Shown here piece by piece: positions 19,903-40,294 of a stretch of DNA of 64,000 nucleotides; the first letter of the stretch is position 1; every line of letters begins with the position of its first letter. The DNA comes from Escherichia phage vB_EcoM_Ozark. The DNA lies in the sequence record NC_054927.1; one strand, written 5' to 3'. Position numbers and translations under genes: made by a program. Below the pieces are notes generated by a model. It was not told the DNA's origin. It did no database searches and saw nothing but the letters and a program-made list of their open reading frames with translations.

Positions 19903-19924
19903 TTTGTGTTCCTCCGTAGTTGAT

Positions 19925-19960
19925 AGTTGTATAGTACCACAAAGGAACAGTCTTGTAAAC
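19925..19960 (-). promoter_or_regulatory. Early promoter with conserved leader
   Basis: Minus strand GTTTAC-N15-TGG-TACTAT followed by CTATCAACTAC leader and GGAGG. Confidence 0.5.
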
Positions 19961-19962
19961 CG

Positions 19963-20277
19963 CTAAAAGAAACTTCTTTCACAATTTTTTCCACTGAACC
20001 ACGCGCTCACCGCTTTCTTAGTCTCAGGAGCAGTGTTATCCATAAACCATTCAAAAGCAGCCTTTTTATGATTCTGGAGGGCTTCTCGGGCTTTAATCTG
20101 CTCACGGTCTATTAACACTAACATATGAGCCTTTCTTGTCACCATGGGCTTCTTATGATTTTTTGAATACTCCCAATCATTTGTCCATCGCATCGTTGTT
20201 GCGAACTGAAATACTGCTTCTTTAATTTTAGTTTCGTAAATCTCACGAGCCTTTGAGTATAACATCACTACCTCCAT
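19963..20277 (-). CDS. Hypothetical protein
   Basis: 104-aa ORF. Confidence 0.35.
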   Translation of the reverse strand: MEVVMLYSKAREIYETKIKEAVFQFATTMRWTNDWEYSKNHKKPMVTRKAHMLVLIDREQIKAREALQNHKKAAFEWFMDNTAPETKKAVSAWFSGKNCERSFF

Positions 20278-20366
20278 TTACCAGTTTAATTCTAATCATC
20301 TTTTTGATGGCAGTCCATATAATCTATTTCTGAACTGCCTTTTTGTCATAGAAGGCCTCTTATGAA

Positions 20367-21335
20367 TTATTTCAGAAGAGTAACCTCAGCAATTTCTTCC
20401 CAACCGTTTTTGTCGGTCATAATAAAGTCAGCAAGATAAAGTGCAGTACGCAGTGAAACATTGCGTAAACGATTAACATTGACTTTCATCCATGATAATG
20501 CTTTATAAGTTTCTTCATCAGAAAGACCGCGTTTTTGCATCATGTCAGTTGAAAGAATAACATCTTCAACCCTGACCATAATTTCTTCATTAGTGTGAAC
20601 ACCCAAATCTAAATAAACTGAGCGGGAAACTAATGCTTGTAAATGTGGAGCAAGTTTAGTACCACGATCTAATTCGCGGTCAATATCAACGTTTGTGATA
20701 AAAACAATCGTTCCTTTAAATTCAAACTCACGCTCAATGCCTTTTTCTTCTAAGTAAGAAGATGCAGTGCTCCAGCAGACTTTACGGGTCTCTCCAGTGT
20801 CCAGAGCAGCTTTTAGAAGATTAAGAATGTCCATATCAGAGAAAACATCCACATCATCAATCAAAAGGACAGAATTCTCTTCACGATTATTCCAAAGCTG
20901 TTCATAAAGACCGATACCGGAGATTTTACCGTTAATGCTTTTATATTCAATGTATCCAATATCATTTGCTTTATTTAAAGCTTTATCTAAAGAATACGTT
21001 TTACCAATACCTGCCGCACCAGAGATAATTAATGAACGAATGTTTCCGTTAATAATACCATTCGTCATCATTCCCATAACATTAAATCTTTTATTAATGC
21101 GGGTTTTCATATCTTCATACGATTCTTTAACTTCTTCAACTTTTACACCATCATATGAAATGTCTGATTTGTAAACCCAAACACCGCGACGCTTACCGTC
21201 AATTTCAACAAAAACTTTACCATCTCCTTGTGCATCTACCGGAGCATTATCTGGGAACCATTCACCTAAGAGCTCAAAAGTTCCAGAGATTTCTTTACCG
21301 AAGTAGATACCCTTATTGATAGTTACAGTTTTCAT
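20367..21335 (-). CDS. P-loop ATPase (AAA-like)
   Basis: 322-aa ORF; Walker A GAAGIGKT and Walker B-like LLIDDVD; ~100-aa N-terminal domain precedes the ATPase core. Confidence 0.5.
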   Translation of the reverse strand: MKTVTINKGIYFGKEISGTFELLGEWFPDNAPVDAQGDGKVFVEIDGKRRGVWVYKSDISYDGVKVEEVKESYEDMKTRINKRFNVMGMMTNGIINGNIRSLIISGAAGIGKTYSLDKALNKANDIGYIEYKSINGKISGIGLYEQLWNNREENSVLLIDDVDVFSDMDILNLLKAALDTGETRKVCWSTASSYLEEKGIEREFEFKGTIVFITNVDIDRELDRGTKLAPHLQALVSRSVYLDLGVHTNEEIMVRVEDVILSTDMMQKRGLSDEETYKALSWMKVNVNRLRNVSLRTALYLADFIMTDKNGWEEIAEVTLLK

Positions 21336-21392
21336 TTTATTCTCCTTTGATTTGATAGGACTACTATAACATAGTCCTATCAGTTTGTATAC

Positions 21393-21593
21393 TTATTTTG
21401 ACATTTCTTCGATGTCACGACGATACCCGTCACGAACTTCACGAAGAGCTTCAAGGCCACACATAGGCTCGATACCTGTAATGTGAACTTGATTAATCTG
21501 ATACTCTACATCTTCTAACTGAGCGAAAACATAACGACGTTCAGCTGCACAACCAGATTTAGCTTTACCGAAACGTTTATTCAAAGTAGTCAT
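21393..21593 (-). CDS. Hypothetical small protein
   Basis: 66-aa ORF preceded by an early-promoter-like element. Confidence 0.3.
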   Translation of the reverse strand: MTTLNKRFGKAKSGCAAERRYVFAQLEDVEYQINQVHITGIEPMCGLEALREVRDGYRRDIEEMSK

Positions 21594-21628
21594 TTTGTAT
21601 CTCCAATTTACTCATTTGTTTTGATAGG

Positions 21629-21663
21629 TCTATAGTATCAACAACTACAGACCATGTAAACCG
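21629..21663 (-). promoter_or_regulatory. Early promoter
   Basis: Minus strand GTTTAC-N15-TGA-TACTATA. Confidence 0.45.
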
Positions 21664-21683
21664 TTTTGTGAAAAATTTTTGAA

Positions 21684-21710
21684 ATAAAAAAAGGGAGCCC
21701 GAAGGCTCCC
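21684..21710 (-). terminator. Rho-independent terminator after the nucleotidyltransferase-like gene
   Basis: Hairpin GGGAGCCTTCGGGCTCCC followed by TTTTTTT on the minus strand. Confidence 0.65.
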
Positions 21711-21712
21711 TA

Positions 21713-22726
21713 TCATTTATAATAACTTCGGTGGTTTTCAAGATAGACCTTCTCAAGGAAGTCATCCCAGAAACTCATGTCTACTGTTTTAGGCATACCG
21801 TTCTTAGAAGCTTCAGTAGATGCTGCTTCTACTTGATCGACCACATCTTCCAAAAACTCTTGAACTGTTTTAAATGGATGTTTACCCAACTTCACGTCGA
21901 GAATAAATGGAGCATCTTGAAGTGGATAGACTAAGTCACCAGTTTTGTAAATTTCCAATAGTTGGAGTCCACCACGACAAGCATGACTCAAAGCTTTCCA
22001 GTCAATACCTTCATTGGCTTCAGCCTTACGAGCACGTTCACCGTATTCAGCATCTAATTTGTTCAGTGACTGCTTAAGCTCAATAAGAGAAAGCGTTGTC
22101 TGATATTTACGACCCAACACTGTGTAAAACGTCTGTGGGCCTGTTTTCTCATGATTATGGAACACCCATTCACAGAATTCGTTTTCTGGAAGACGATGCT
22201 TAATATCTTCAACTTTAGTACGACGCTGCTTAATGGAACCGTCTTCTTGGTAATCAACCCATTGCTCAGGGATTTGATTAACTACTTTCAATACATCGCG
22301 TAATGCAGCCAAACGAGAACCCTTGACACCGTATTTAGAAGCTTGCTTGCGGACATATCCTAAATAGGATTTCATGTTAGTCGTATAAAAACGAGAACGG
22401 TTGTCTTGAATAAACTTCCACACATCAGGCAAATCAGATTTAACCACTAGTTCAGGTGGAGTGTGAAGCATATCCAATGCTACAGTTTCACCATCTGCTG
22501 CTAATTTAAAGAAATATTTAAGACTGTATAGTTCATGGTCAATATCATCTTTAGTGTTTTTAGATGATGTATTGTTAGTGTTTTTACTCATGTGCTCTTT
22601 GACATTTCCGATAAGAATATCGCGAGCAGGAGGAACAAAGATTTCTTTAAAATCTACATCAGATTCTGGGGTAGAAGTTCCATAAAGATGACTACCAAAA
22701 TAGCTTTTCATTACTGTTTTCATCAT
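21713..22726 (-). CDS. Predicted nucleotidyltransferase-fold protein (Pol-beta-like GS...DVD motif)
   Basis: 337-aa ORF; N-terminal GSHLYGTSTPESDVDFKEIF resembles the minimal nucleotidyltransferase motif; followed by a largely helical C-terminal region; strong terminator just downstream. Confidence 0.45.
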   Translation of the reverse strand: MMKTVMKSYFGSHLYGTSTPESDVDFKEIFVPPARDILIGNVKEHMSKNTNNTSSKNTKDDIDHELYSLKYFFKLAADGETVALDMLHTPPELVVKSDLPDVWKFIQDNRSRFYTTNMKSYLGYVRKQASKYGVKGSRLAALRDVLKVVNQIPEQWVDYQEDGSIKQRRTKVEDIKHRLPENEFCEWVFHNHEKTGPQTFYTVLGRKYQTTLSLIELKQSLNKLDAEYGERARKAEANEGIDWKALSHACRGGLQLLEIYKTGDLVYPLQDAPFILDVKLGKHPFKTVQEFLEDVVDQVEAASTEASKNGMPKTVDMSFWDDFLEKVYLENHRSYYK

Positions 22727-23184
22727 TCAGCCTTATATTCAATAACAGGACATACTTTAGCTTTACGAGCTTTTAAAAATTCGACGATAATCGATTTCTT
22801 AGGTTGAATAGGAGGTAAACCTTTATACGCCCTATCAATATTTTCTACGTGTAAAGCATAATCCTTTTTCCATTTATAATCTTTATATTTTTCACGCAAA
22901 TGTGCAGGAATAACAAATGAACCGATAATAAGTAAAACAACCAAAAGCGCAAGTATAAATGCTGATGGAAGCAAAGTCCATAAACTACCAAAAATAAGCC
23001 AACGTTGTAGGCTTTCTGCACAAATAATTGTTAGCCCTACGAGTATAGCACATCCAAAAATAGAAACGAAAAATGTAGGAATGGCAATAGACCAAAAATA
23101 TGCGCATAGTGTCTTAGGTCGTTGCCATTCATCGTTAAACAATTTGAATAATTTATAGTGCCAAGAGTTTTCATTAATAATCAT
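22723..23184 (-). CDS. Membrane protein
   Basis: 153-aa ORF with two or three hydrophobic transmembrane segments. Confidence 0.4.
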   Translation of the reverse strand: MIINENSWHYKLFKLFNDEWQRPKTLCAYFWSIAIPTFFVSIFGCAILVGLTIICAESLQRWLIFGSLWTLLPSAFILALLVVLLIIGSFVIPAHLREKYKDYKWKKDYALHVENIDRAYKGLPPIQPKKSIIVEFLKARKAKVCPVIEYKAE

Positions 23185-23186
23185 AA

Positions 23187-23708
23187 TTATCCTTTCATTG
23201 AAGGCGTAACAGTTGTTAAATACTTAATCATAGCTTCAGCTTCTGATTTTGATAATGAAATTTCTCCATTGTTTTGACGAATAGAAATAAAATCCGGATG
23301 ACGGTCACCACCAGCTTTTAAAACACACATATAAGTATCAACTTCATCTTCAATATTTGAAATGATTGAAGCAGTTCCACATGAATGCGGTTTTTGATAA
23401 ATCAATGCAGCTTTTCTTCCGCCATTTGACTGTTCATAAACTTTTAATACATCAAACAAATCACTTCTTTTATCAATAGCTAAAATGTTATTTTCATCTT
23501 CAATGTTAAATCCTTCGGATACTTCATAAAGTGTCACCCATAAATCGCCAATATCAATAACAGCGTTCACTTTTCCATGACTTTCAAGAGCATGACAAAT
23601 TTTCTTGATTTCGTCATAACTCATTTTAATAATATCATCTCCTTGAATAAGAAAGATGTCATTTTTAAATTCAACACGAATTAAACCACTTCCACTTGAA
23701 ATAAACAT
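23187..23708 (-). CDS. Hypothetical protein, paralog of the adjacent gene
   Basis: 173-aa ORF; shares EGFNIE core and C-terminal ...EAEAMIKYLTTVTPSM with the 23715-24260 product (PGFNIE, ...EAIALKTYLDSVIPTM). Confidence 0.4.
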   Translation of the reverse strand: MFISSGSGLIRVEFKNDIFLIQGDDIIKMSYDEIKKICHALESHGKVNAVIDIGDLWVTLYEVSEGFNIEDENNILAIDKRSDLFDVLKVYEQSNGGRKAALIYQKPHSCGTASIISNIEDEVDTYMCVLKAGGDRHPDFISIRQNNGEISLSKSEAEAMIKYLTTVTPSMKG

Positions 23709-23714
23709 ATTTCC

Positions 23715-24260
23715 TCACTTTGAAATCATAGTTGGAATAACAGAATCAAGATAAGTCTTTAGTGCAATAGCTTCGTCTTTGGTAAATGTGACAATATGTG
23801 CTCGAAAATCATCAATTTGACGAATAGTTAAGACATCTCCATCTTCATAACATTTTGATACGTTTAAAACAGTTTCATCATTCTGATTGCAAGCGTTAGT
23901 AATAATAGCATTGCAATTTTTAAACCATTTTAAACTATGTTTTCTTTCATTAGAATAATAAAAATATTTAATCTTATCTATAAAACTATCCCAATGGATA
24001 ACTGATAAGCATATTGACTCGCTTTCAATATTAAATCCTGGGCATGAAGAATAAAAATGAATTTTATGCTCATCATTAATGCTTACAATTTTATCAGTAT
24101 AAGGATTTTCAATTTTGGTTAAATGAATGATTTCACTAGGCGTAAAATACAGCATATCGTCTTCTTGTGTCAAACGATACATATTATTTACTTTTTCTAT
24201 AGCTAATTCACCAAAAAGTGAACTAACTTCTAATACTAATCGTTTCGCCGCTACCGTCAT
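23715..24260 (-). CDS. Hypothetical protein, paralog of the adjacent gene
   Basis: 181-aa ORF; see 23187-23708. Confidence 0.4.
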   Translation of the reverse strand: MTVAAKRLVLEVSSLFGELAIEKVNNMYRLTQEDDMLYFTPSEIIHLTKIENPYTDKIVSINDEHKIHFYSSCPGFNIESESICLSVIHWDSFIDKIKYFYYSNERKHSLKWFKNCNAIITNACNQNDETVLNVSKCYEDGDVLTIRQIDDFRAHIVTFTKDEAIALKTYLDSVIPTMISK

Positions 24261-24587
24261 TACATACTCCTCTGAATCATATCAATAATGTTGTTCACCA
24301 GATTATAAGTAAACATTGGGTAATTATATTGAATCATTACATACACAACAAACAAAACTTTCATTCTCTTCTCCTTGGCAGTTGACAAGATTACTATACC
24401 ATAACCTTGCCAACTTGTAAACCATTAAATGACGTTTTCAATAAAATTCTGAAGCTTTGTGTGAGCATCAACCATGATTTTCATTTCTTCTTTTGCGAAA
24501 GCTGTACCTCTTTCCCGAGCAGAATACTCATAGTCAGAAACTGCATTAGCATATTCTTCAATTAGCTTCATTAAAAACATCTGCTTT

Positions 24588-24782
24588 TCAGTTTTCATTA
24601 TTCCACCTAATCATTTCAAGATATTGAACTAACTTAGCTTTGGATTTATCCAAATCTCTTTTAGCTGCTTCTATACCGTCGTATGAATATCCTTCACAAT
24701 GCTCAACTGCTAATTGATATGAATCTATTTCAATATCACGTGCTAATTTAATGATTTTTTCAAACTGTTCACGTGTTAGCAT
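24588..24782 (-). CDS. Hypothetical small protein
   Basis: 64-aa ORF. Confidence 0.3.
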   Translation of the reverse strand: MLTREQFEKIIKLARDIEIDSYQLAVEHCEGYSYDGIEAAKRDLDKSKAKLVQYLEMIRWNNEN

Positions 24783-24784
24783 AA

Positions 24785-25024
24785 TTAAACTCTCGTATTA
24801 TGATCGATAATTTCATCAAGAAACATATCTAACGCTTCTAAAGCATTATCAACTTTAGCTTCAAGTTCTTCAATACCTTTATTTGCAATGCCTGACGAAA
24901 ACCAAGCAAAGTCACTAAATTCCTCATCTGCTTTGCGAATTAAAGCTACCAATTCCTTAATTTTATCCGCTTGTTCGATACTAATCATTATTCCACCACA
25001 TATGAAAGAGAGAATATTGCACAC
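24785..25024 (-). CDS. Hypothetical small acidic protein
   Basis: 79-aa ORF. Confidence 0.3.
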
Positions 25025-25221
25025 GCCATGTGAGTTGCAACTTCATCACACATATTATAACGTTTCTTAAGAAGTTCTACAAGTTCTTCACTAGTAACTT
25101 CATCCATGTCGACGAAAAAATCACCATTAATGATGACGTAGATATTTCCTTCTTGATTGAGTGCTTCAATTTTCATGATGTTCTCCTCTTTATCTGATAG
25201 TTGTATAGTACCACAGCTCAA
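24988..25221 (-). CDS. Hypothetical small protein
   Basis: 77-aa ORF directly downstream of an early-promoter element. Confidence 0.35.
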
Positions 25222-25236
25222 ACGGAAAGTAAACCG
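25203..25236 (-). promoter_or_regulatory. Early promoter with conserved leader
   Basis: Minus strand GTTTAC...TGG-TACTATAC-AACTATCA, near-identical to the 19925 and 35963 copies. Confidence 0.5.
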
Positions 25237-25244
25237 GTAAAATG

Positions 25245-25266
25245 AAAAAAGTCTCCCGAAGGAGAC
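25245..25266 (-). terminator. Rho-independent terminator after the rI operon
   Basis: Hairpin GTCTCCTTCGGGAGAC followed by TTTTTT on the minus strand. Confidence 0.6.
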
Positions 25267-25271
25267 TAATG

Positions 25272-25658
25272 TTATTCGAGGGAAAGAAGATACTTACTCT
25301 GATAAAACATTCCAGTAATATCATCTATCGTGCTTTGGATGGCTGGAGGCATTTCTTTATAAATGCTGTTAGATTGGTCTAGTATGCGATCAATCATTTT
25401 AATTGTGTCGGTAGGAAGTTTACTGGCATCTGGAATTGAAGGTGTGTATTTTCTACCAGAATACCCCAAATATTGCTCACCAAATTTATCAATCAAATCT
25501 GGCAACTCGGAGAAAATAAAATCGTATGCTTTGTGTCTAGCATAATTTTTAGTTTCAAAATGTGCAGAATGAAAATAAGCTTGTGCAGCCATTAATAAAC
25601 CTAAGTATTCATCTGCCTTTGAAGGTTTTCCACTTTGTGAAAAGTCGCTGAATTTCAT
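25272..25658 (-). CDS. Hypothetical protein (rI.-1 position)
   Basis: 128-aa ORF; 4-nt overlap with rI; terminator hairpin immediately downstream. Confidence 0.45.
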
Positions 25659-25948
25659 TCAGTCTCCAATTTAATGTTCATAATTCTAGCGTATGATTGT
25701 GCCATCTCCGCGCCTCGTTCTATACATTCAAAATCAGAAGAGCACGGGTCATTTTTATAGGTCGTTCGCATAAAACTATAGAACTGTTCAGATGATTCTA
25801 CGCTTTTATTTTCAAAAAGCATATAAACATGTCTAATGCCAGATTCCATAAATTTATCAAAATGAGGATCGACATTTGCTTCAATCGGTGGAGATAAAGC
25901 AAACGCTAATCCTAGCATGGCAAATAGTGCCGTTGCTTTTAAGGCCAT
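25655..25948 (-). CDS. rI: Lysis-inhibition regulator rI (signal-anchored periplasmic protein)
   Basis: 97-aa ORF; MALKATALFAMLGLAFALSPPIEA signal anchor; two Cys (CSSDFEC); size and sequence match T4 rI. Confidence 0.85.
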   Translation of the reverse strand: MALKATALFAMLGLAFALSPPIEANVDPHFDKFMESGIRHVYMLFENKSVESSEQFYSFMRTTYKNDPCSSDFECIERGAEMAQSYARIMNIKLETE

Positions 25949-25960
25949 AAAGGCCTCCTA

Positions 25961-26173: not shown

Positions 26174-26215
26174 ATATACCCCTTTAGTTAGATAAACCTA
26201 TTTATAACTTTTGCA

Positions 26216-26797: not shown

Positions 26798-26806
26798 ATC
26801 ACCTTC

Positions 26807-28907: not shown

Positions 28908-28914
28908 GCTTACC

Positions 28915-29376
28915 TCATTGAGTTTTAATTACTGCTTTAGAAGCCTTTCCTGGTAAACGACGACTGTTAATAATTGCCATCCTACATTGAAGTGACGGGT
29001 CTTTGAACTTCTCATTAGGTTTACAAACTGTAAATCCAAGCCAAAGATTTCCATCTGTGATTTCTAAACGTCCAGGACGATATTCAACCCCATCAATAAA
29101 ATCCTCGTCAATGTCAGGACGCGGAGGCATACTCAGGAATTCATTAACTTCTAAAACATGGTCTTTTATTTTATGGAATAATTCAAAAACATATGTCTCA
29201 TCAATCTCCCGCTGAATTGCGCGATCAAGAAGATGCTGAGAATATTTTAGATGAAACGATGAGACCCCTGCTGCTTTTGATGCCTCACGAATCTCATTGT
29301 TAATTTGACGAAACTCCGACTCAAAGTGACGACGAAGCTTATTTCGACGGATAAAAACTTCTGTATTGATAGTCAT
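28915..29376 (-). CDS. regB: Endoribonuclease RegB
   Basis: 153-aa ORF MTINTEVFIRRNKLRRHFESEF...; size/sequence match T4 RegB; early promoter GTTTAC-N18-TATAAT immediately upstream. Confidence 0.85.
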   Translation of the reverse strand: MTINTEVFIRRNKLRRHFESEFRQINNEIREASKAAGVSSFHLKYSQHLLDRAIQREIDETYVFELFHKIKDHVLEVNEFLSMPPRPDIDEDFIDGVEYRPGRLEITDGNLWLGFTVCKPNEKFKDPSLQCRMAIINSRRLPGKASKAVIKTQ

Positions 29377-29402
29377 GTTGTTCTCCTCTTAACTGATAGA
29401 AA

Positions 29403-29435
29403 AATTATACCACAGTCAAGAGGAAAAGTAAACAG
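29403..29435 (-). promoter_or_regulatory. Early promoter upstream of regB
   Basis: Minus strand reads GTTTAC-N15-TGG-TATAAT, the T4 early-promoter architecture. Confidence 0.6.
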
Positions 29436-29714
29436 TTATTCTTTAAATCTGATCAATTTATTCATAGACTTTGAAACTTCTGCACGAACCTCATGTAGAT
29501 TTTTGAGCTGTTCAAGACGCTGCGTATAGTAAGCAATTTCATCTTCTTCGAGACAGTCCTGTGAATCTTCTTTAAGATAACGTGCATAGTCCTGAAAAGC
29601 GTTACGAACTACTTCCTGAAAATCATCAAGACTTTGAATTTTCTTAGGAGCAGCAAATACACGACGAGGGGCAGTATAATACTCATAACCAAACCCTGCG
29701 CTTAATTGAGCCAT
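29436..29714 (-). CDS. Hypothetical protein (vs.3 position)
   Basis: ORF track begins at a GTG; first ATG gives a 92-aa protein [13 protein letters not shown]...; TAATG overlap with the upstream gene. Confidence 0.4.
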
Positions 29715-32043: not shown

Positions 32044-32059
32044 GTGTATCCTTTAATTT

Positions 32060-32377
32060 TTATTCTTTAGGGAAGTTTTTAGAATATGCATCATAAAGCT
32101 TATTTCCAATACGGCGGAAAACTCTAGCCGCAAAACGATTTTCTGGGTTTTTAATCATGATTTGCATCATATAAGTACCCGCGTCAGAAAGAGCTTCTTC
32201 ATAGTACCCGTTAATTTCTTTAAGAGTCCTACGTTTACCACCAGGACCATCAACAGTGATTTTCCATTTACCTGTAGAAGTGCGACTTGGCGGCTCAACT
32301 TGTTCAATCCAGATATAACCGCCTTCTACACGTTGTCCTTGGGCAGATTCTGCAATAAATTCTTTAAACGTTTTCAT
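32060..32377 (-). CDS. Internal-protein-like packaged protein with capsid-targeting sequence
   Basis: 105-aa ORF beginning MKTFKEFIAES; early-promoter element immediately upstream. Confidence 0.6.
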   Translation of the reverse strand: MKTFKEFIAESAQGQRVEGGYIWIEQVEPPSRTSTGKWKITVDGPGGKRRTLKEINGYYEEALSDAGTYMMQIMIKNPENRFAARVFRRIGNKLYDAYSKNFPKE

Positions 32378-32411
32378 ATGGTTCCTTTAAATATTTTAAT
32401 TAGTAACTATG

Positions 32412-32446
32412 AATATACTATCACAGTTCTAGGAGAAAGTAAACAA
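32412..32446 (-). promoter_or_regulatory. Early promoter upstream of an internal-protein gene
   Basis: Minus strand GTTTAC-N15-TGA-TAGTAT. Confidence 0.45.
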
Positions 32447-32448
32447 CT

Positions 32449-33417
<969 letters not shown>

Positions 33418-33421
<4 letters not shown>

Positions 33422-34175: not shown

Positions 34176-34734
34176 ATTTTTCTAGTAATAAATCACTTTC
34201 AAAATTAGGATTTTCCACTAATTTATCAAAAAGATCATCAACAATATTCAAGATATTCTTTTTACTAAGAATACGTTTATTTTCATGCTTCGTTTCAGAA
34301 TCAACTATAAGAGTAAAGAAATATTTCTTTCCCTGAAATTTTACTGTAGTATCAATATAGAATAAATTTGACTTTTGTAAGTTACGTTTAAACCATGCGT
34401 CACTTAAACTATAAACACCGAGATAATCAAAATCGTCGTTTAAATAACAAACTGTCCATTCAGGAGAAATGAAATCAGTAAATTCAACATCAAAATCACA
34501 TGTTAATGAATGAATTGATTCAATACTGTTAATAAGTATTCCAGGGCGTATTAAAGACTTTTTACCTCTAGAAAATCTTCCAGAAAGACTTTCATCAGTT
34601 TCATATGAAGAACCCCAATAATAATTACGTCCTTCTGCCATACGTTTAAGAGCATTTAATAATTGGTCTGGAACATCAACTTGTCTTTGGAATTCTTCAA
34701 ACATTGAATTGAAATCAATTTGCATTCTTCTCAT
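34123..34734 (-). CDS. Hypothetical protein
   Basis: 203-aa ORF. Confidence 0.4.
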   Translation of the reverse strand: MRRMQIDFNSMFEEFQRQVDVPDQLLNALKRMAEGRNYYWGSSYETDESLSGRFSRGKKSLIRPGILINSIESIHSLTCDFDVEFTDFISPEWTVCYLNDDFDYLGVYSLSDAWFKRNLQKSNLFYIDTTVKFQGKKYFFTLIVDSETKHENKRILSKKNILNIVDDLFDKLVENPNFESDLLLEKFVKECREYVKAITIPSK

Positions 34735-34775
34735 TCCTATTTACTCCAAGTAATAGGGGCCGAAGCCCCTTATCA

Positions 34776-35369
34776 TTATTTCAGAGAATTAATGTATTCC
34801 TGTACATCGGCAGAGGTAGTTTCAACCCCAGAAATATTACCATTAAAGGTTTCAACTCGAGCGAGAGTGTCTTCAATATCAACCTTAGTCAGTGCTGCAA
34901 TTTCAACTACATCATCGGCAGTACTAATTCCAAGTGCATTCGCCGCTCGAGTTTCACGGATATATTCCAATTTAACTGCAAGTTCTTGGCGAGCATCATC
35001 CAATTCAACTACTTTCTTGGCGATTTCAATTCGCATTTCAGCATACCCATCAGCTTTAGTAGTTAACTGTTCAGCTGTTCGACGATATAGTAAGCCGAGT
35101 TTAGCATGCATTGTTACATCTTGACCTTCGGAAAGAAGCTTGCGAATTTCACGCTCTTTTGATTCAGCCTGCTTATTCTTTTCGACAATAAGTTCACGAA
35201 TACGCTTTTCTTCATTAATAGATTTAACAGAAGCAGTTTTTAGATCTTTAATCTTATCAAGTAGTTTTGCTGCCGCAGCAGTATACTGTTCTTCAACAGA
35301 TAGATTTTTAGCCATAGCAGAACCAAGTTTAGTGCGAATAAACTCAACAATTTTCTTCAGTGTGTTCAT
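34776..35369 (-). CDS. Coiled-coil protein (weak PspA/IM30-like character)
   Basis: 197-aa ORF, almost entirely charged heptad-like helix (…[27 protein letters not shown]…); resemblance to PspA is impressionistic only. Confidence 0.4.
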
Positions 35370-35412
35370 AGTATTTCCTTAGGTTAATTAAGATTTAAAA
35401 TCCATGAGAGTA

Positions 35413-35589
35413 TTATACTCCGGATAGTTTGTAAACTATTTCAACATCGCCTTTTGCTGCTTTATAACCTTCAGCCCAAGATACAACCGAGTTTTTATCT
35501 GAAGATTCAAATTCTGGCATTGGGCTTTCGCCAATGTTCACGCAGTATGTTTCTTCATTTTCGTCGAACCAAATAATTAAAGTAGTCAT
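35413..35589 (-). CDS. Hypothetical small protein (58 aa, below the ORF-track cutoff)
   Basis: Hand-translated MTTLIIWFDENEETYCVNIGESP...; GGAG ribosome-binding site 7 nt upstream; promoter-like element at ~35600-35640. Confidence 0.3.
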   Translation of the reverse strand: MTTLIIWFDENEETYCVNIGESPMPEFESSDKNSVVSWAEGYKAAKGDVEIVYKLSGV

Positions 35590-35657
35590 TTATTTCTCCG
35601 TTTCTGTATTTGTTTTGATAAGTCTATAATAACACCGTCCTTGGTGTTTGTACACAA

Positions 35658-35984
35658 TTATTTCATATTATTGAAATGTTCTTCTGCAATTTCGTCGTTA
35701 TCATGGTAAACTTTAGAAGACAGTTTAACATAACCTTCAGCAGTGAACATGTTAATCACAACCTTTACAGTATACCACTGACCATCTTCATTACCCATTA
35801 CTGCATAGGTTTCAAACATCGGATGATCAGGACCGATAACTTTAATATCATTCACTGTACGACCAAAATCTTCTGAAACACATTTCATAAAGAAGTTGAA
35901 CAGTTCGCCGTAATTATCCATTTCATTCTCCAAGTTGTTTTCTGTATCAGTAGTTGATAGTTGTATAGTACCATGGAAGGACAA
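35658..35984 (-). CDS. Hypothetical acidic protein
   Basis: 108-aa ORF directly downstream of an early promoter and conserved leader. Confidence 0.4.
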   Translation of the reverse strand: MSFHGTIQLSTTDTENNLENEMDNYGELFNFFMKCVSEDFGRTVNDIKVIGPDHPMFETYAVMGNEDGQWYTVKVVINMFTAEGYVKLSSKVYHDNDEIAEEHFNNMK

Positions 35985-35996
35985 GGATGTAAACAG
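35963..35996 (-). promoter_or_regulatory. Early promoter with conserved leader
   Basis: Minus strand GTTTAC...TGG-TACTATAC-AACTATCAACTAC. Confidence 0.5.
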
Positions 35997-36125
35997 TTTT
36001 GTGAAAAAATTTTTAAAAAGTTTTAGGGAATTCTAGGGTCAGGAGGGGCAATTAAAAGGTAGGATAATATATTATAAAGGGTATAAACTAAATGATGCCT
36101 AGAGAGGCCCGGAAAGGCCTAGATA

Positions 36126-36155
36126 CCAAAAAGCCCCAACCTTTCGGTCGGGGCT
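36126..36155 (-). terminator. Terminator hairpin downstream of the 36163-36636 gene
   Basis: GCCCCGACCGAAAGGTTGGGGC hairpin with G-U pair followed by a short T-run; near-identical to the 36685 copy. Confidence 0.5.
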
Positions 36156-36162
36156 AAGAATG

Positions 36163-36636
36163 TTATTTGATTTGTTTAGCAGACCAAATGCGGTCTTTAA
36201 TAATTTTTTGGATGTCTTCAACATACTCAAGAGAGTGAGCATGTGGGTTATCTTTAAAACTATAAGCACGAGCTAACTTTTGACCTTCAGTTTTGATTAC
36301 TAAAAGCTCTTTAAGGATAGCTTCATATCTGGAGATAATTCCTTTAACAATATTTTTTTCTTGTGTAGCTTTAGGATCTGCTTTAGGAGCAGGTTTACCC
36401 GAAGCCTTTGCAAAAGCAGCGCCAGTAGCAACTAAACTTTTCCAGGCCATACTAACTGCATTCCCTGTAAATCCTTCGGCTTTCATATCACGAGCAAATT
36501 GGAATCGTGATTCATCGGAAGCATCTTTATAGGAATATTTACCCGCGGCAATGGCTGCTTTTGCGACAGCTTGAATTTCGGTGCTAGACGCTTCATTTAA
36601 CACCGCTTCATTTAAAAATTGAGTATATGATTTCAT
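36163..36636 (-). CDS. Putative packaged protein with capsid-targeting-like N-terminus
   Basis: 157-aa ORF beginning MKSYTQFLNEA (compare MKTYQEFIAEA); Ala/Lys-rich; flanked on both sides by near-identical terminator hairpins. Confidence 0.45.
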   Translation of the reverse strand: MKSYTQFLNEAVLNEASSTEIQAVAKAAIAAGKYSYKDASDESRFQFARDMKAEGFTGNAVSMAWKSLVATGAAFAKASGKPAPKADPKATQEKNIVKGIISRYEAILKELLVIKTEGQKLARAYSFKDNPHAHSLEYVEDIQKIIKDRIWSAKQIK

Positions 36637-36684
36637 CTTATTTCCTGTTTTAATTCGTGAATTTAATATACTAATATTTATACT

Positions 36685-36712
36685 AAAAAAGCCCCAACCT
36701 TTTGGCTGGGGC
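36685..36712 (-). terminator. Terminator hairpin at the distal end of the tRNA/stable-RNA operon
   Basis: GCCCCAGCCAAAAGGTTGGGGC hairpin followed by TTTTTT on the minus strand. Confidence 0.55.
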
Positions 36713-36764
36713 TAAGCCTTGCGGCAACCTTGTCGGGGTTCCACCTGCTAAGGCAAGTGTTTGT

Positions 36765-36856
36765 ACGAAACGCCGGGATTCGAACCCGGTTATTAAGTAG
36801 TTGACGCTACTCAATATTTTTAAAAGGCCATATCTCAACCATATCCGAACGTTCCG
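36765..36856 (-). ncRNA. tRNA-like stable RNA (acceptor and T-arm present, no canonical anticodon arm found)
   Basis: T-arm CCGGG-TTCGAAT-CCCGG and a 7-bp acceptor pairing found by hand; ~92 nt; anticodon stem-loop could not be folded canonically; position corresponds to where T4 carries small stable RNAs downstream of tRNA-Arg. Confidence 0.3.
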
Positions 36857-37029
36857 TCAAAAACGCTACTCGGCTTACGGCAAAGATATTTCCTCGAATC
36901 GATAATTCGGTGCGCCGTTTCTGCTGTGATATAAGGGGGCATTAACAAAACATAAAGATTTATTAATGCCAGTCCTTAAACAGGGAACATCAGTCCGACG
37001 ACTTGCCGGTAGCGACCCGGCTTCTTGTC

Positions 37030-37105
37030 TGGTCGAGGCAGTAGGGATCGAACCTACGACCCAGGACTTAGAAGGTCCTTGCTCTTCCTTCTGAGCTATG
37101 CCCCG
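37030..37105 (-). tRNA. tRNA-Arg (anticodon UCU)
   Basis: Hand-folded cloverleaf: acceptor CGGGGCA/TGCCTCG, D-stem GCTC, anticodon loop CTTCTAA, T-loop TTCGATC, CCA encoded. Confidence 0.8.
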
Positions 37106-37109
37106 TAAT

Positions 37110-37185
37110 TGGGGTGACCGATGGGAGTCGAACCCATGACTACGAGAATCACAATCTCGAGTTCTACCAACTGAACTACGGCCAC
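37110..37185 (-). tRNA. tRNA-His (anticodon GUG)
   Basis: Hand-folded: acceptor 7 bp, anticodon stem CGAGA/TCTCG with loop TTGTGAT, T-loop TTCGACT, discriminator C, CCA encoded. Confidence 0.7.
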
Positions 37186-37299
37186 ATTAATACCTACTCC
37201 AATAATCAAGATGTCTTCACACGAAATTAAGAGAAGAGTGATCAGTTCAACCCCTATAATCGCGTCAAGTAGATATTAATGTGACAGTTGTCACAAATT

Positions 37300-37374
37300 T
37301 GGCGGACGTGATAGGATTCGAACCTATAACCAATCGCTTAACAGGCGATCGCTCTGCCATTGAGCTACACATCC
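37300..37374 (-). tRNA. tRNA-Asn (anticodon GUU)
   Basis: Hand-folded: anticodon stem ATCGC/GCGAT, loop CTGTTAA, T-loop TTCGAAT, CCA encoded. Confidence 0.75.
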
Positions 37375-37378
37375 AAAT

Positions 37379-37465
37379 TGGTGGGGAGTGGTGGAGTCGA
37401 ACCACCCGAGTCGCAATGACAATGGATTTACAGTCCACACCGCTACCTCTACGGGATAACTCCCC
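37379..37465 (-). tRNA. tRNA-Tyr (anticodon GUA), long variable arm
   Basis: Hand-folded: exact 7-bp acceptor GGGGAGT/ACTCCCC, anticodon loop CTGTAAA, ~15-nt variable arm, T-loop TTCGACT, CCA encoded. Confidence 0.7.
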
Positions 37466-37478
37466 TTAATTCTTAATT

Positions 37479-37553
37479 TGGTGGCCCTGGGTGGAATTGA
37501 ACCACCATCTGGCGATTATGAGTCGCTTGCTTGAACCTTCCAGCTACAGGGCC
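37479..37553 (-). tRNA. tRNA with anticodon CAU (elongator Met or Ile with modified C34)
   Basis: Hand-folded: exact acceptor GGCCCTG/CAGGGCC, anticodon loop CTCATAA, T-loop TTCAATT, CCA encoded. Confidence 0.7.
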
Positions 37554-37554
37554 T

Positions 37555-37630
37555 TGGTGCTGATTGACGGAATCGAACCGCCGACCTTCTCATTACAAGT
37601 GAGTTGCTCTACCTACTGAGCTAAATCAGC
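37555..37630 (-). tRNA. tRNA-Thr (anticodon UGU)
   Basis: Hand-folded: exact acceptor GCTGATT/AATCAGC, anticodon loop CTTGTAA, T-loop TTCGATT, CCA encoded. Confidence 0.75.
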
Positions 37631-37635
37631 AAAAC

Positions 37636-37725
37636 TGGCGGAGGCGATAGGATTTGAACCTATGAGTCGCCGGAGCGACTGCCGGTTTTCAAGACCGGTG
37701 CATTAAACCACTCTGCCACGCCTCC
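37636..37725 (-). tRNA. tRNA-Ser (anticodon UGA), long variable arm
   Basis: Hand-folded: exact acceptor GGAGGCG/CGCCTCC, anticodon stem CCGGT/ACCGG with loop CTTGAAA, variable-arm hairpin GTCGC/GCGAC, CCA encoded. Confidence 0.8.
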
Positions 37726-37727
37726 AG

Positions 37728-37801
37728 TCTCCATACAAGGATTTGAACCTTGGACCTCCTGATCCCAAATCAGGCGCTCTACCAAACTGAGCTACACGGA
37801 G
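37728..37801 (-). tRNA. tRNA-Pro (anticodon UGG)
   Basis: Hand-folded: anticodon stem CCTGA/TCAGG, loop TTTGGGA, T-loop TTCAAAT; CCA not encoded. Confidence 0.75.
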
Positions 37802-37811
37802 TAAATTAAAT

Positions 37812-37885
<74 letters not shown>

Positions 37886-37890
37886 AAATT

Positions 37891-37977
37891 TGGTGCGAGA
37901 AGTGGGACTCGAACCCACAAGGAAATCATTCCGCAGCATTTTAAGTGCTGTGCCTTTACCAATTTGACCATTCTCGC
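37891..37977 (-). tRNA. tRNA-Leu (anticodon UAA), long variable arm
   Basis: Hand-folded: exact acceptor GCGAGAA/TTCTCGC, anticodon stem CAGCA/TGCTG with loop CTTAAAA, T-loop TTCGAGT, CCA encoded. Confidence 0.8.
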
Positions 37978-37983
37978 GTTATA

Positions 37984-38592
37984 TTATTTATTACGTGAAA
38001 AAGACTGTTCTATCAATTCTGGACACTTTCGTTCTATCCATTTTCTAGCTTTTTGTGGGCTTATACCTATTATTTTAGCAGCTTTACTAACCCATCCAAA
38101 TTTAGAATAATCGATTTTAACTAATTCTTCGTAAATTTCATCAGTTAAAATCTTTTCATTAATATTTACCAGTAAATGATATAATTTGTTATCATTAGCA
38201 ATTTTAATGAATCTTTTATAGTTTCCGCCTTTACTTAAACCTAATGAAGTAATTGCAGATGATATAGTAGCCGAATTTAATAATGCGTTTAAAATTTCTT
38301 CATCACTAACATTATAACGCTTTTTATTATTTTTAATATTTTTACCAGCAAAAGTATCAGTTTGCGAATGACAGTTTGGACATAATAATCTTAAATTTGA
38401 TTTAAGATGATTTTTGTTATTTCCATCAATATGGTCTAATTGCAGAACAATATGCTTATTTTGCCATTTTGAAATTTTACAAATTGCACACTCATATGGA
38501 AAAATATTTTCTTTTATTATTTTGTCTTTCAGCTTTCCTGTACTAAAATTTGGATGTTTTCCTTCAAAAATTTCAGCTAATTTAGTATCCAT
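37984..38592 (-). CDS. HNH-family homing endonuclease abutting the tRNA cluster
   Basis: HNH/zinc motif LQLDHIDGNNKNHLKSNLRLLCPNCH plus CAIC; ORF track begins at TTG (38616), first ATG at 38592 gives 202 aa; stop lies 6 nt from the tRNA-Leu 5' end. Confidence 0.65.
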   Translation of the reverse strand: MDTKLAEIFEGKHPNFSTGKLKDKIIKENIFPYECAICKISKWQNKHIVLQLDHIDGNNKNHLKSNLRLLCPNCHSQTDTFAGKNIKNNKKRYNVSDEEILNALLNSATISSAITSLGLSKGGNYKRFIKIANDNKLYHLLVNINEKILTDEIYEELVKIDYSKFGWVSKAAKIIGISPQKARKWIERKCPELIEQSFSRNK

Positions 38593-38702
38593 AATATGAT
38601 TCCCAATTATTAACAAAGGCTCTCAAGCAAGAACCCTTGATGATAGAGGGTATTAATCAGTGCGATATGAGTTAATAATAACAAATAATTCTTAAAGCAT
38701 AT

Positions 38703-38990
38703 TTACCATTTATGATAATACATATTTACGATGCATTCAAGACCCAAAGGATTCTTGAAAATATCATATTCAAGAGGACCTTTTTCCGTTTCAATAAAGA
38801 AATCAAAATTTACTGTATTAAATTTACGGTCTTCCTTCACTAATTTAACCTGAGAAGATGAACGGTCAATGTAAACCTTTTCAACTTCAAAACATGTTAA
38901 AATGCCATAATCATCAATCAAGGCTTTAGCTGCTTCTTGATCATATTTATATCCATTTTCAACGGATGATACTTTCGCATAAAGAATCAT
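38703..38990 (-). CDS. Hypothetical protein
   Basis: 95-aa ORF. Confidence 0.4.
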   Translation of the reverse strand: MILYAKVSSVENGYKYDQEAAKALIDDYGILTCFEVEKVYIDRSSSQVKLVKEDRKFNTVNFDFFIETEKGPLEYDIFKNPLGLECIVNMYYHKW

Positions 38991-38992
38991 TA

Positions 38993-39415
38993 TCAGCCTT
39001 CATCAACAATAGTATGAGTATGGGCATTTACGATTTGCCACCAATCAAAGCGATTAGAACCATACATCGGTTTGTTTTCATTTTCTTTGATAATATCACG
39101 GAGTTCATCTTCGGTAGCGGCTTTCGCGATTAAATCAGCATATCCACCACGAGGATAATAATTATCACCTGCAAAAAGTAAAAAATTTGGTGTAATATTA
39201 TTGAACTCTTCAAGAGTAATAACTGTTCCTGATGGTAATTGAACAATCTCTACATAGTTATATCCTAATTTTTGAGCAGCATCTACTGCTTCAAGCAGAG
39301 TATCATGAGCCCGTCCTATTTGGCAATTTGGCTTTTTAGATGGATTAGCCTGATAATCCGCGTACACTTTATACATTCTATTCACCTTTAGAAATTTTAT
39401 CCATAACGATAGCAA
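38993..39415 (-). CDS. Hypothetical protein
   Basis: 140-aa ORF; true start may be the internal Met (MYKVYADYQ...). Confidence 0.4.
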   Translation of the reverse strand: MLSLWIKFLKVNRMYKVYADYQANPSKKPNCQIGRAHDTLLEAVDAAQKLGYNYVEIVQLPSGTVITLEEFNNITPNFLLFAGDNYYPRGGYADLIAKAATEDELRDIIKENENKPMYGSNRFDWWQIVNAHTHTIVDEG

Positions 39416-39563
39416 TTAAACCAATTACAAATGCTACTACAAGTGAAAACACATTTTCTGCTGTAGTTAATAATCCGCATATAAATCCAACAAACATTGA
39501 AAAACTAAAAGCGGAAGCAGAAATTGCAATAGCAACATTTCGAATTAATTCACAGCGTTTCAT
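39378..39563 (-). CDS. Small membrane protein
   Basis: 61-aa ORF, two hydrophobic helices; directly downstream of a promoter/stem-loop cassette. Confidence 0.3.
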   Translation of the reverse strand: MKRCELIRNVAIAISASAFSFSMFVGFICGLLTTAENVFSLVVAFVIGLIAIVMDKISKGE

Positions 39564-39580
39564 TTTATTCTCCTCAGTAG

Positions 39581-39623
39581 TTGATAGGGTAATAGTATCA
39601 CTACCCTATCTAAAAGTAAACTT
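39581..39623 (-). promoter_or_regulatory. Early promoter / stem-loop cassette
   Basis: -10 element TGATACTAT embedded in the loop of a gataggg/ccctatc inverted repeat; GTTTAC -35 at 39616-39621. Confidence 0.45.
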
Positions 39624-39855
39624 ATTTTTTACGAAAAATTGATTTATTTTCTGCTGCCCATTTTTCAATAACTGCAGCAGGACCAGTAACAACAATTTTA
39701 TCACCGTAATCTTCTGCAGCGAGTTGACCGAAATTATCTAATGCATCACGAAGAACTCCATGAGGCATTTCGCCCATTTTATCCTTCTTGCCAATGTAAA
39801 TAAACTCAACTTTTACATCAACAGCTTCAGCAATAAATTCTTGATATGTTTTCAT
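39622..39855 (-). CDS. Internal-protein-like packaged protein with capsid-targeting sequence
   Basis: ORF track begins at GTG (39873); the ATG at 39855 gives a 77-aa protein starting MKTYQEFIAEA, the canonical internal-protein capsid-targeting sequence; early promoter upstream. Confidence 0.55.
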   Translation of the reverse strand: MKTYQEFIAEAVDVKVEFIYIGKKDKMGEMPHGVLRDALDNFGQLAAEDYGDKIVVTGPAAVIEKWAAENKSIFRKK

Positions 39856-39888
39856 TTTATTCTCCAATTTCACATTTGTTTTGATAGG

Positions 39889-39923
39889 GTAATAGTATCA
39901 CTACTAAAACCCCGTGTAAACAA
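39889..39923 (-). promoter_or_regulatory. Early promoter upstream of the MKTYQEFIAEA internal-protein gene
   Basis: Minus strand GTTTAC-N15-TGA-TACTAT; shares extended flank (ttgatagggtaatagtatcactac) with the 39581 copy. Confidence 0.5.
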
Positions 39924-39940
39924 CTTTGTGAAATTGTTTA

Positions 39941-40231
39941 TTACAAAAGATTTTTAGCAATAATCTTGAGATGTGCTGCAGAAATGTGTTTAGCTTTAAA
40001 CAACGCAGTTTCTTCGGCAGGAGAGATAACGATTGTAGCACCATCCTTTTTAGCAGACCACCCATCACCTAGGTAAACAGTACCTTTGATTTCTTCGCCA
40101 TCAACCAGACTAATCATTGGTTTACCTTCTCGTCCTTTATTTGCTTTAATAACTTCAGAAGTAAGAGTAGCTTCGGTAATGGTAGAAACCGGGGTAGTTG
40201 TAGTAGAAGTAAATTCTTTAAATGTTTTCAT
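39941..40231 (-). CDS. Putative packaged protein with capsid-targeting-like N-terminus
   Basis: 96-aa ORF starting MKTFKEF followed by a Thr-rich segment and ITE-A protease-type site; promoter/stem-loop cassette upstream. Confidence 0.45.
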   Translation of the reverse strand: MKTFKEFTSTTTTPVSTITEATLTSEVIKANKGREGKPMISLVDGEEIKGTVYLGDGWSAKKDGATIVISPAEETALFKAKHISAAHLKIIAKNLL

Positions 40232-40251
40232 TTTTATTTTCCTAATTAATT

Positions 40252-40294
40252 TTGATGAGGTAATAGTATCACTACCTCATCAGTATGTAAACAA
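40252..40294 (-). promoter_or_regulatory. Early promoter / stem-loop cassette
   Basis: -10 element within the gatgagg/cctcatc inverted repeat; GTTTAC -35 at 40287-40292. Confidence 0.45.

Follow-up and report, generated by a model that had tools for sequence, protein, structure and literature searches.

T4-type early promoter modules and the stems around their −10 elements in Escherichia phage vB_EcoM_Ozark

The early-gene region of Escherichia phage vB_EcoM_Ozark (NC_054927.1), analyzed here in a stretch of 64,000 nucleotides (nt; hereinafter the window), carries on its minus strand a series of recurrent promoter–leader modules concentrated between positions 19918 and 40294. These are very probably best explained as T4-type early promoters (Pe) that serve as portable linkers and hold their −10 elements in selected, covarying stems. 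The motif, its placement, its orthology to T4, the hybrid junctions between modules and the covariation of the stems are all directly demonstrable in the sequence. The feature is real and strongly non-random, and a first-pass annotation of the same DNA recognized it correctly; it is the textbook early promoter of T4 and as such already known, and a cassette-shuffling role has already been published for the same phage group and the same loci.

Identity of the early promoters

We name each promoter P plus the coordinate at which its −35 box starts on the minus strand (e.g., P19960, with the −35 at 19955–19960). The predicted order of a module is an A/T-rich UP element (TTTCACAAA..), the −35 box GTTTAC, a 15-nt spacer, TGn and the −10 box TAYTAT, followed by a leader of ~25–45 nt with a GGAG-type Shine–Dalgarno sequence (SD) and then by the start codon (ATG) of a small early gene; the host sigma-70 RNA polymerase would read these sites immediately after infection. 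Across the window the pattern GTTTAC-N15-TGR-TAYTAT has eight exact matches, all on the minus strand and seven of them inside 19918–40294, as compared to 0.00 expected and none in 100 shuffles. With a relaxed −10 (GTTTAC-N14-16-TGNTANNNT) the count is 12, every match having N15 and lying on the minus strand, as compared to 0.11 expected. The motif search proposed in the first-pass annotation, run here over the window, thus returns a non-random motif, and the "at least ten" minus-strand sites counted there hold with the relaxed −10 only. A scan with a position weight matrix (PWM) recovers 13 sites on the minus strand and 0 on the plus strand, with scores of 14–47 where shuffles reach 8.6 at most. 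A fourteenth, weaker site lies at 21392 (GTATAC...TATAGT); the −35 boxes are degenerate there (GTATAC) and at 35655 (GTGTAC). All promoter sites lie within the early-gene block; the plus strand and the late-gene block past ~44 kb have none. Most sites show an UP element of the form TTTCACAAA(G/A)(T/C)(T/G), or A-runs, directly upstream of the −35, and downstream of each site, at 25–45 nt, there is an SD followed by an ATG; as counted from the start of the site, SD and ATG are 55–75 nt away.

The early promoters of T4 combine GTTTAC at −36 to −31, an A-rich UP element at −40 to −44, TGn and a −10 box (PMC1524935), and have been termed "uber UP/−35/TGn/−10 promoters" by Hinton (PMC2988021). The sites in the window share with them the UP element, the GTTTAC −35, the 15-nt spacer to TGn, a −10 of the form TAnnnT and the placement on the early-gene strand upstream of early genes; they differ in nothing essential, the preferred −10 being TACTAT/TATTAT here as compared to TATAAT. 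Those upstream of nrdC.8, mobD.5, regB, e.8, trna.4 and ipI are near-identical to their T4 intergenic counterparts, with several being base-for-base orthologues. Judged by these features the sites are T4-type early promoters, and the early promoter/leader cassettes singled out in the first-pass annotation are orthologues of T4 early-promoter sites. The T4 counterparts are presumably the experimentally mapped promoters of Miller et al. 2003; the T4 RefSeq and GenBank records annotate no promoter features, and a literature search for T4 transcription-start maps yielded none that was usable.

An extended leader had been proposed to be shared by the copies at 19918, 25195, 35950 and 39570. This is borne out for three of the four, CTATCAACTAC being exact at 19916, 35950 and 39577, and fails at 25195, where the sequence is CTATCAGATAA. 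The promoters at 21661, 35655 and 39921 are followed by another leader family, TATCAAAACAAAT, that had been overlooked. GGAG, the motif cleaved by RegB (PMC3014915), is present in 10 of the 12 leaders. The leaders lacking it belong to the internal protein (IP)-type genes orf105 (32375–32400) and ipI (40229–40255), where the SD is AGGAA; these would consequently escape RegB cleavage, which is consistent with their virion-protein products.

The window is a Tequatrovirus (T4-like) segment, ~97% identical to many sequenced phages. A megablast search with 19000–41000 matches 1197 phage records, 282 of which cover at least 80% of the query in a single place with identities of mostly 95–99%; the best matches (Shigella phage JK38, Escherichia phage AV122 and others) are ~97% identical and are all Tequatrovirus. 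This interval is collinear with T4 from nrdC.7 to gene 57A (T4 53–75 kb), with 19918–40294 corresponding to T4 nrdC.8 to 57B. The minus strand holds all genes at ~1–43 kb, and the GC skew flips at ~44 kb, at the start of the late baseplate genes. For comparisons of gene content we used five relatives, namely T4, T6, T2, wV7 (whose compared locus starts inside nrdC.10) and Pu-Krd-SF1, plus JK45.

Covarying stems around the −10 element

The first-pass annotation had placed the −10 of three promoters inside stems of 7–9 bp. All three stems are real, with their lengths to be corrected to perfect inverted repeats of 11 bp (TGATAGGACTA, 21392), 9 bp (GATAGGGTA, 39621) and 10 bp (TGATGAGGTA, 40292), as compared to a mean of 4.2 and a maximum of 9 bp in a control that cross-pairs spacer i with downstream segment j. 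Nor are they alone: hairpins enclosing the −10 are also found at six more promoters, 19960, 21661, 24422, 29433, 32444 and 39921 (z −2.2 to −5.5), and in all nine of the 14 promoter regions fold as RNA with a hairpin around the −10. The same feature is seen in T4 at ipI, ipII (13 bp), ipIII, e.7 and trna.4.

Our survey of stems covers 124 unique promoter modules from the window, its relatives and T4-like IMG/VR contigs, which reduce to 65 clusters at 80% identity. Of the 124 modules, 35% contain an inverted repeat that is perfect over 7 bp or more, as compared to 4% of the cross-paired controls; a stem is found in 38 of the 65 non-redundant clusters as compared to 17% of chimeras, and the mean minimum free energy is −8.1 kcal/mol as compared to −4.5 kcal/mol for chimeras (p=8e-5). 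Covariation in a fixed register centered on the −12/−11 step (0.244 versus 0.174±0.016) is reached by 0 of 500 shuffles and exceeds that in every slid register. More than 20 unrelated stem sequences occur (e.g., AGGGCTA/TAGCCCT, GGTATGAG/CTCATACC and GTGTAGGAGC/GCTCCTACAC), and orthologous slots keep the stem while changing both its sequence and its register: T4 ipI has TGATGAGGTA/TACCTCATCA with i+j = 49, whereas wV7 ip5 has TGATGGAGA/TCTCCATCA with i+j = 47. As the register varies among orthologues, fixed-column tests understate the signal; the regB orthologues on two contigs and the nrdC.8 orthologues on 12 in the IMG/VR scans are too few for column-wise covariation at a single promoter. 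The stems are a selected, or at least maintained, family-wide covarying trait of the promoter class and are not peculiar to the three sites.

These data bear on the possibility that the stems are functionless by-products, left either by the paralogous descent of the promoters or, in an AT-rich spacer, by templated (quasipalindrome) mutation, which we judge to be decidedly unlikely. The mosaic relationships among many of the modules, the five stemless promoters and a persisting broken hybrid would all be at home under such an explanation, and T4 is a classical model of quasipalindrome-templated mutation; the enrichment, however, holds after de-duplication at 80% identity and against the cross-pair and chimera controls. 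Moreover, the unrelated stem sequences and shifted registers speak against inheritance, pairing between the nrdC.8 spacer and its SD is found in two genera via different sequences, and a bias toward sense-strand G:T mismatches (see below) is unexpected from templated correction. Very unlikely, too, is an operator role, in which a dimeric DNA-binding regulator, such as a factor that shuts off early promoters, would recognize the inverted repeats. The palindromes do overlap the −10, a typical position for a repressor, and the mechanism of early-promoter shut-off is reported to be not fully understood (PMC3014915), but the half-sites are unconserved, more than 20 unrelated arm sequences stay complementary and the register shifts between orthologues, a combination that fits a nucleic-acid structure rather than a sequence-specific protein site.

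An RNA-level role is the most likely among the readings of the stems, and we favor it tentatively. With its 5′ arm in the spacer, upstream of the predicted transcription start, the stem can be folded by read-through transcripts only. On such RNA its likeliest role would be insulation or attenuation, with occlusion of the ribosome-binding site (RBS) at nrdC.8 and regB. In the regB (29381–29427) and nrdC.8 (19907–19949) modules the spacer is complementary to the module's own SD region; the read-through transcript would hide the RBS along with the RegB-cleaved GGAG, while transcripts from the module's own promoter would not. The nrdC.8 spacer–SD pairing recurs, with different sequences, in Tequatrovirus and Mosigvirus-like contigs. 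In the unselected set, folding is stronger for sense than for antisense RNA (p=0.024), this result alone being used since the same test on the "structured" subset is biased by selection. Mismatches in the stems are mostly sense-strand G:T (12 of 18 independent events, with A:C accounting for 2), and the mobD.2 stem presents a series with A-U in T4, G·U in the window and one pair back to G-C in Pu-Krd-SF1. A more specific version, which is possible but doubtful, posits that the stems are selected RNA hairpins that discriminate transcripts by their origin and insulate each early gene from upstream transcription. Such insulation may operate by hiding the RBS (nrdC.8, regB) or via a stable hairpin just 5′ of it, and the stem might also shield GGAG from RegB.

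Control by a promoter inside a hairpin is known in T4 for e, soc, 25, 26, I-TevI/II/III and segB, with all known cases being late genes with late (or middle) promoters (PMC2988022, Edgell/Belfort). As in those genes, the 5′ arm at nrdC.8 and regB lies upstream of the internal promoter and only read-through RNA would hide the RBS; in contrast to them, the internal promoter is an early one, the stem mostly ends short of the SD and occlusion is not enriched. If this more specific version is true, early promoters across Tevenvirinae would come under a type of control so far reported for late genes alone, and a role of the stems on read-through RNA would bear on the insulation of densely packed early genes.

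Several results count against this reading. Five of the 14 promoters are stemless, and random chimeric stems already show a G:T to A:C ratio of 3:1, which the observed 12:2 does not significantly exceed. Occlusion of the RBS (SD) is found in 29 of 65 modules as compared to 30.4±3.2 in chimeras and, not being enriched, cannot be the general function of the stems. In none of the modules examined is the −10-enclosing stem followed by a U-tract, and the stems are therefore not intrinsic terminators; a GC-rich stem with a U-tract is found only at the separate stem-loops 21692–21711, 25250–25267, 36132–36155 and 36690–36713. Promoter activity and start positions are inferred from sequence and T4 orthology, and the RNA-level function is inferred as well. 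An upstream terminator accompanies two of the five stemless and one of the nine stem-bearing promoters, a sample too small to judge whether stems and terminators substitute for each other. An Rfam covariance-model scan of 19000–41000 matched only the 10 tRNAs, with the promoter stems matching no described RNA family.

Module exchange and gene content

Promoter early stem-loops (PeSLs) comprise an AT-rich region, an early promoter, a stem-loop, an SD and an ATG, and fall into five subclasses by stem position, the commonest stems being between −35 and −10 or overlapping the −10 (Arbiol 2010, PMC2839356). They have been described in PST/T4 with the consensus TTTACW-N17-TAYWAT (Comeau 2014, PMC4122927), and, according to the account in PMC2839356, Repoila 1994 found PeSL-like elements, i.e., T4 early promoters with weaker AT-rich stems, at both T-even IP loci. 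Every site here fits TTTACW-N17-TAYWAT, nine of the 14 modules have a stem-loop around the −10, and two (21661 and 25234) have an upstream terminator-type stem-loop. With both consensus and layout fitting, the comparison to PeSLs made in the first-pass annotation is apt and already in print, the −10-overlapping stems being among those of PMC2839356 and the consensus that of PMC4122927. As in the PeSL cassettes of RB49/phi1, PST/T4 and nt-1/KVP40, conserved intergenic modules of ~100 bp, with −10-overlapping stems as a named subclass, flank ORFans and IP genes that differ among close relatives, and hybrid modules mark deletion junctions. In contrast to those cassettes, the stems here are AT-rich and variable in sequence rather than GGGG...CCCC, the promoter-led genes are mostly conserved and the upstream terminator-type stem-loop of the PST PeSL is limited to the two modules named. 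The T-even IP loci of Repoila et al. (1994, EMBO J), as far as PMC2839356 describes them, are the same loci (57B-ipI-trna.4 and e-ipIII-ipII), with IP genes bounded by T4 early promoters with AT-rich stem-loops and an IP content that differs between T-evens.

In the published PeSL/IP-locus shuffling model, a crossover between two modules would delete, insert or exchange whatever gene or genes they enclose, with a single hybrid promoter as the remnant. Exact identity between modules comes in mosaic blocks of 12–24 bp, and general homologous recombination can thus use the modules as portable linkers. For three events, namely the loss of Ip6, a 3-kb deletion in T6 and the orf66 cassette in JK45, comparison at single-base resolution places the junctions in hybrid promoters or at module edges. 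The trna.4 promoter of wV7 joins the upstream half of P39921 to the leader of P39621, with the switch inside their shared 24-bp block (GTGATACTATTACCCTATCAA); this is the product expected if the Ip6 cassette were excised by recombination between its flanking promoters. In T6, e is directly followed by regB, and the intergenic promoter unites the UP/−35 of P32444 with the spacer of P29433, the crossover being in TGTTTACTTT; the junction removes 3.0 kb with vs.3–vs.8 and two IP genes. JK45 has a 355-bp promoter–orf66–promoter unit relocated to the e.x region, its homology running from TTTCACAAAAC-GTTTAC of the upstream promoter to the SD–ATG past the downstream promoter. The nrdC.11|nrdC.10 slot, which holds orf66 in the window, is empty in T4 and most relatives. 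In T2 this slot (20170–20960 of the compared T2 sequence) has a gene annotated as an RNA polymerase ADP-ribosylase and a small open reading frame (ORF), the ADP-ribosylase-like cargo lying between two terminator+UP+promoter modules. Such clean junctions (wV7, T6, JK45 and T2) can be used as guides for annotation.

Crossovers thus fall at various points of the module, as expected of general homologous recombination between short stretches of identity and not of a site-specific system. This has a bearing on whether the stems act instead as DNA, with a cruciform or hairpin that is cut or bound by a structure-specific factor (e.g., endonuclease VII) creating recombination hot spots. We regard this as unlikely: crossovers are spread over the −35 (T6), the −10/3′ arm (wV7) and the UP and SD–ATG (JK45 cassette), and a stem does not predict variability, seven of nine junctions with a hairpin being variable as compared to two of three without. 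It is true that the most variable slots (the IP loci and nrdC.11|nrdC.10 here; ipI, ipII, ipIII and e.7 in T4) have promoters with stems and that a stem-loop-targeting protein has been speculated upon (Arbiol 2010, PMC2839356), but nrdC.8 and mobD.2 have strong stems and are invariant, the G:T mismatches and sense-over-antisense folding favor RNA, and a recombinant with non-complementary arms exists in Pu-Krd-SF1. The latter, at ~20603 on the minus strand of that phage, is a hybrid promoter that combines a trna.4-type spacer (AAATAGGGT) with an ipI-type leader (TATCTCATC), its arms being unpaired; a crossover within the −10 loop can hence break the stem. DNA-level explanations are overall the less likely, because crossovers are not focused on stems, stems are not predictive of variability and half-sites are unconserved.

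An integron-type mobile-element system, with a folded recombination site and a site-specific recombinase, is the most improbable of the alternatives considered. Single-gene cassettes bounded by imperfect inverted repeats, with different cargo in the same slot, are reminiscent of one; however, the ten variable genes scanned include no integrase or recombinase, the cargo being ORFs of 58–105 amino acids (aa) and IP genes, and the junctions lie in ordinary homology blocks of 9–24 bp at varying positions instead of at a conserved folded site. Further, general recombination was left as sufficient by Arbiol 2010 (PMC2839356). Like morons and integron cassettes, the units here are single genes with their own expression signals or foldable bounding repeats, placed between conserved genes. 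They differ from integron cassettes in having no integrase or attC, and from morons in that the regulatory module itself supplies the homology for exchange.

Turning to gene content, five of the 12 promoter-led genes (orf66, orf105, orf58, the Ip6-like gene and ipI) are variable among the five relatives. orf66 is absent from T4, T2, T6, wV7 and Pu-Krd-SF1, and 53 of 658 matching phage records contain a match to the full 701-bp stretch with it. The Ip6-like gene is absent from T4 and wV7 and has other genes in its place in T2 and Pu-Krd-SF1, while ipI is replaced by Ip5 or other IP genes in T6, T2, wV7 and Pu-Krd-SF1; the exact arrangement trna.4-Ip6-ipI is found in 19 of 589 records. The cargo, with ipI (PF11634 nuclease inhibitor), Ip6-like and Ip4-like internal proteins and ORFans of unknown function, is as the literature predicts. 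Of 54 breakpoints, 13 are inside modules, which cover 7.7% of the bases (p=2e-4), and among the 27 structural differences promoter modules hold both breakpoints of five (p=0.015, with an expected fraction of 0.055) and one breakpoint of three more.

Set against a general role of the promoters in gene mobility are the seven promoter-led genes of the 12 (nrdC.8, nrdC.10, mobD.2, mobD.5, regB, e.8 and trna.4) that are present in every relative whose locus covers them, the weakness of the enrichment at junctions (nine of 12 promoter junctions variable as compared to 16 of 39 others; Fisher one-sided p=0.04 with five relatives) and the 19 of 27 structural differences with neither end in a module. 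Variability at the level of genes is not raised either, at five of 12 promoter-led genes as compared to ~16 of 39 without a promoter. The events unrelated to promoters are mostly gains or losses of homing endonucleases (mobD, segB, a seg-like gene in T6 and the HNH gene at 37984–38616), the remainder involving the tk.1/2 region, e.2, the tRNA cluster and trna.3. The first-pass annotation had inferred that the genes just downstream of the promoters are candidates for mobile cargo and suggested mapping the modules against gene content in relatives. The mapping supports cassette shuffling in part only: the association appears for junctions and breakpoints and not for genes as such, and the cargo proposal, right for the five variable genes, was over-general. 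Shuffling of modules appears to account for a minority of the structural variation in the region, chiefly that in IP genes and small ORFans. Quantified for this T-even region, the PeSL idea accounts for turnover among IP genes, such as the anti-restriction gene ipI, and among small ORFans, and leaves most structural variation unexplained; not every promoter-led gene is mobile.

Individual modules and neighboring features

The modules and genes described below are on the minus strand. The nrdC.8 module (19900–19985) has an UP element, TGG-TACTAT at 19931–19939, the leader CTATCAACTAC, the SD GGAGG and the ATG at 19900–19902; in the RNA hairpin of P19960 (19907–19949; 14 bp, −17.5 kcal/mol, z −4.7) the spacer pairs with the SD as the 3′ arm. 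orf66 (21393–21593; phrog_6200, function unknown) is cargo with promoters on both sides. Its cassette is bounded downstream by the weaker early promoter of nrdC.10 (21333–21392; GTATAC-N15-TGT-TATAGT), in which the hairpin of P21392 (21353–21382; 12 bp, −17.7 kcal/mol, z −4.4) encloses the −10. The upstream module (21591–21711) shows the canonical PeSL layout, with a terminator stem-loop (21692–21711) and T-run, an UP element, the −35 at 21656–21661, the leader TATCAAAACAAAT and the ATG; the hairpin of P21661 likewise encloses the −10 (−15.5 kcal/mol, z −2.75).

The mobD.2 early promoter (24362–24447; P24422) has a hairpin enclosing the −10 at 24380–24415 (15 bp with two G·U pairs; −19.0 kcal/mol, z −4.2), the T4 counterpart of which is a perfect 14 bp. 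The mobD.5 module (25174–25267) combines a terminator (25250–25267) with an early promoter and has no hairpin around the −10 (z −1.2). At 22723–23708 two ORFs (153 and 173 aa) take the place of the T4 mobD homing-endonuclease gene, as they do in T6, T2 and wV7, the second of them (173 aa) having y05I-like domains (PF24449/PF24448).

The endpoints of the 3-kb T6 deletion are the early promoters of regB (29374–29458; P29433) and of orf105 (32375–32469; P32444), an IP-like gene with the N-terminus MKTFKEFIAES. The hairpin of P29433 (29381–29427; 15–18 bp, −22.4 kcal/mol, z −5.5) has AAGAGGAG, with the SD, as its 3′ arm, and that of P32444 (32401–32431; −10.3 kcal/mol, z −2.2) includes one G·U pair. 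Within the 3′ end of gene e, at 32524–32553 and ~80 nt upstream of the IP promoter 32444, is a sigma-70-like GTTAAC-N15-TGG-TATAAT, which is below the PWM threshold and uncounted. Three matches with two mismatches, namely this one (32553), one on the plus strand (33927) and one at 35436, where TATAAT is only 13 nt after GTTTAC, all score below this threshold, and we took none of them as a promoter.

The gene orf58, in the slot of T4 e.7, has a weaker early promoter (35587–35680; GTGTAC...TATTAT). The e.8 early promoter (35919–36019), with the leader CTATCAACTAC, has no hairpin (z +0.5) and lies 138 nt downstream of a terminator. Two near-identical intrinsic terminators at 36132–36155 and 36690–36713 (AGCCCCGACCGAAAGGTTGGGGCT and AGCCCCAGCCAAAAGGTTGGGGCT, each with a T-run) flank orf157b (36163–36636; 157 aa, phrog_2280), which is absent from T4, T6, T2 and Pu-Krd-SF1. 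T4 has a single terminator copy at this locus, with a 30-bp overlap at the junction; orf157b is thus a cassette bounded by repeated terminators and not by promoters.

At the 57B-proximal end, the trna.4 early promoter (39561–39646) has a 24-bp exact block in common with P39921, and the hairpin of P39621 (GATAGGGTA/TACCCTATC; 39583–39610, −16.4 kcal/mol, z −3.5) encloses the −10. The gene for the Ip6-like internal virion protein (39622–39858; phrog_8111) is cargo with promoters on both sides, its own being at 39856–39946 (P39921; leader TATCAAAACAAAT, −14.6 kcal/mol, z −2.3). Promoter-flanked as well is the cargo ipI (39941–40231; PF11634, IPI_T4 nuclease inhibitor), the early promoter of which (40229–40317; P40292) is identical to the T4 site and has a hairpin enclosing the −10 (TGATGAGGTA/TACCTCATCA; 40253–40282, −17.4 kcal/mol, z −4.7). 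Two promoter cores, sites 8364 and 16989, fall outside 19918–40294: one at 8335–8364, found by both the exact motif and the PWM, and one at 16960–16989 with the −10 TATAAT, which coordinate mapping to T4 places upstream of the nrdC.4 orthologue.

The tRNA cluster at 37030–37977 has ten tRNA genes. As compared to T4, the interval 37030–38616 has His, Asn, Tyr and Met in addition, the Ile and Gln of T4 are missing and segB is absent. The HNH endonuclease gene (37984–38616; phrog_14736) adjoins tRNA-Leu, at the place of T4 tRNA-Gln.

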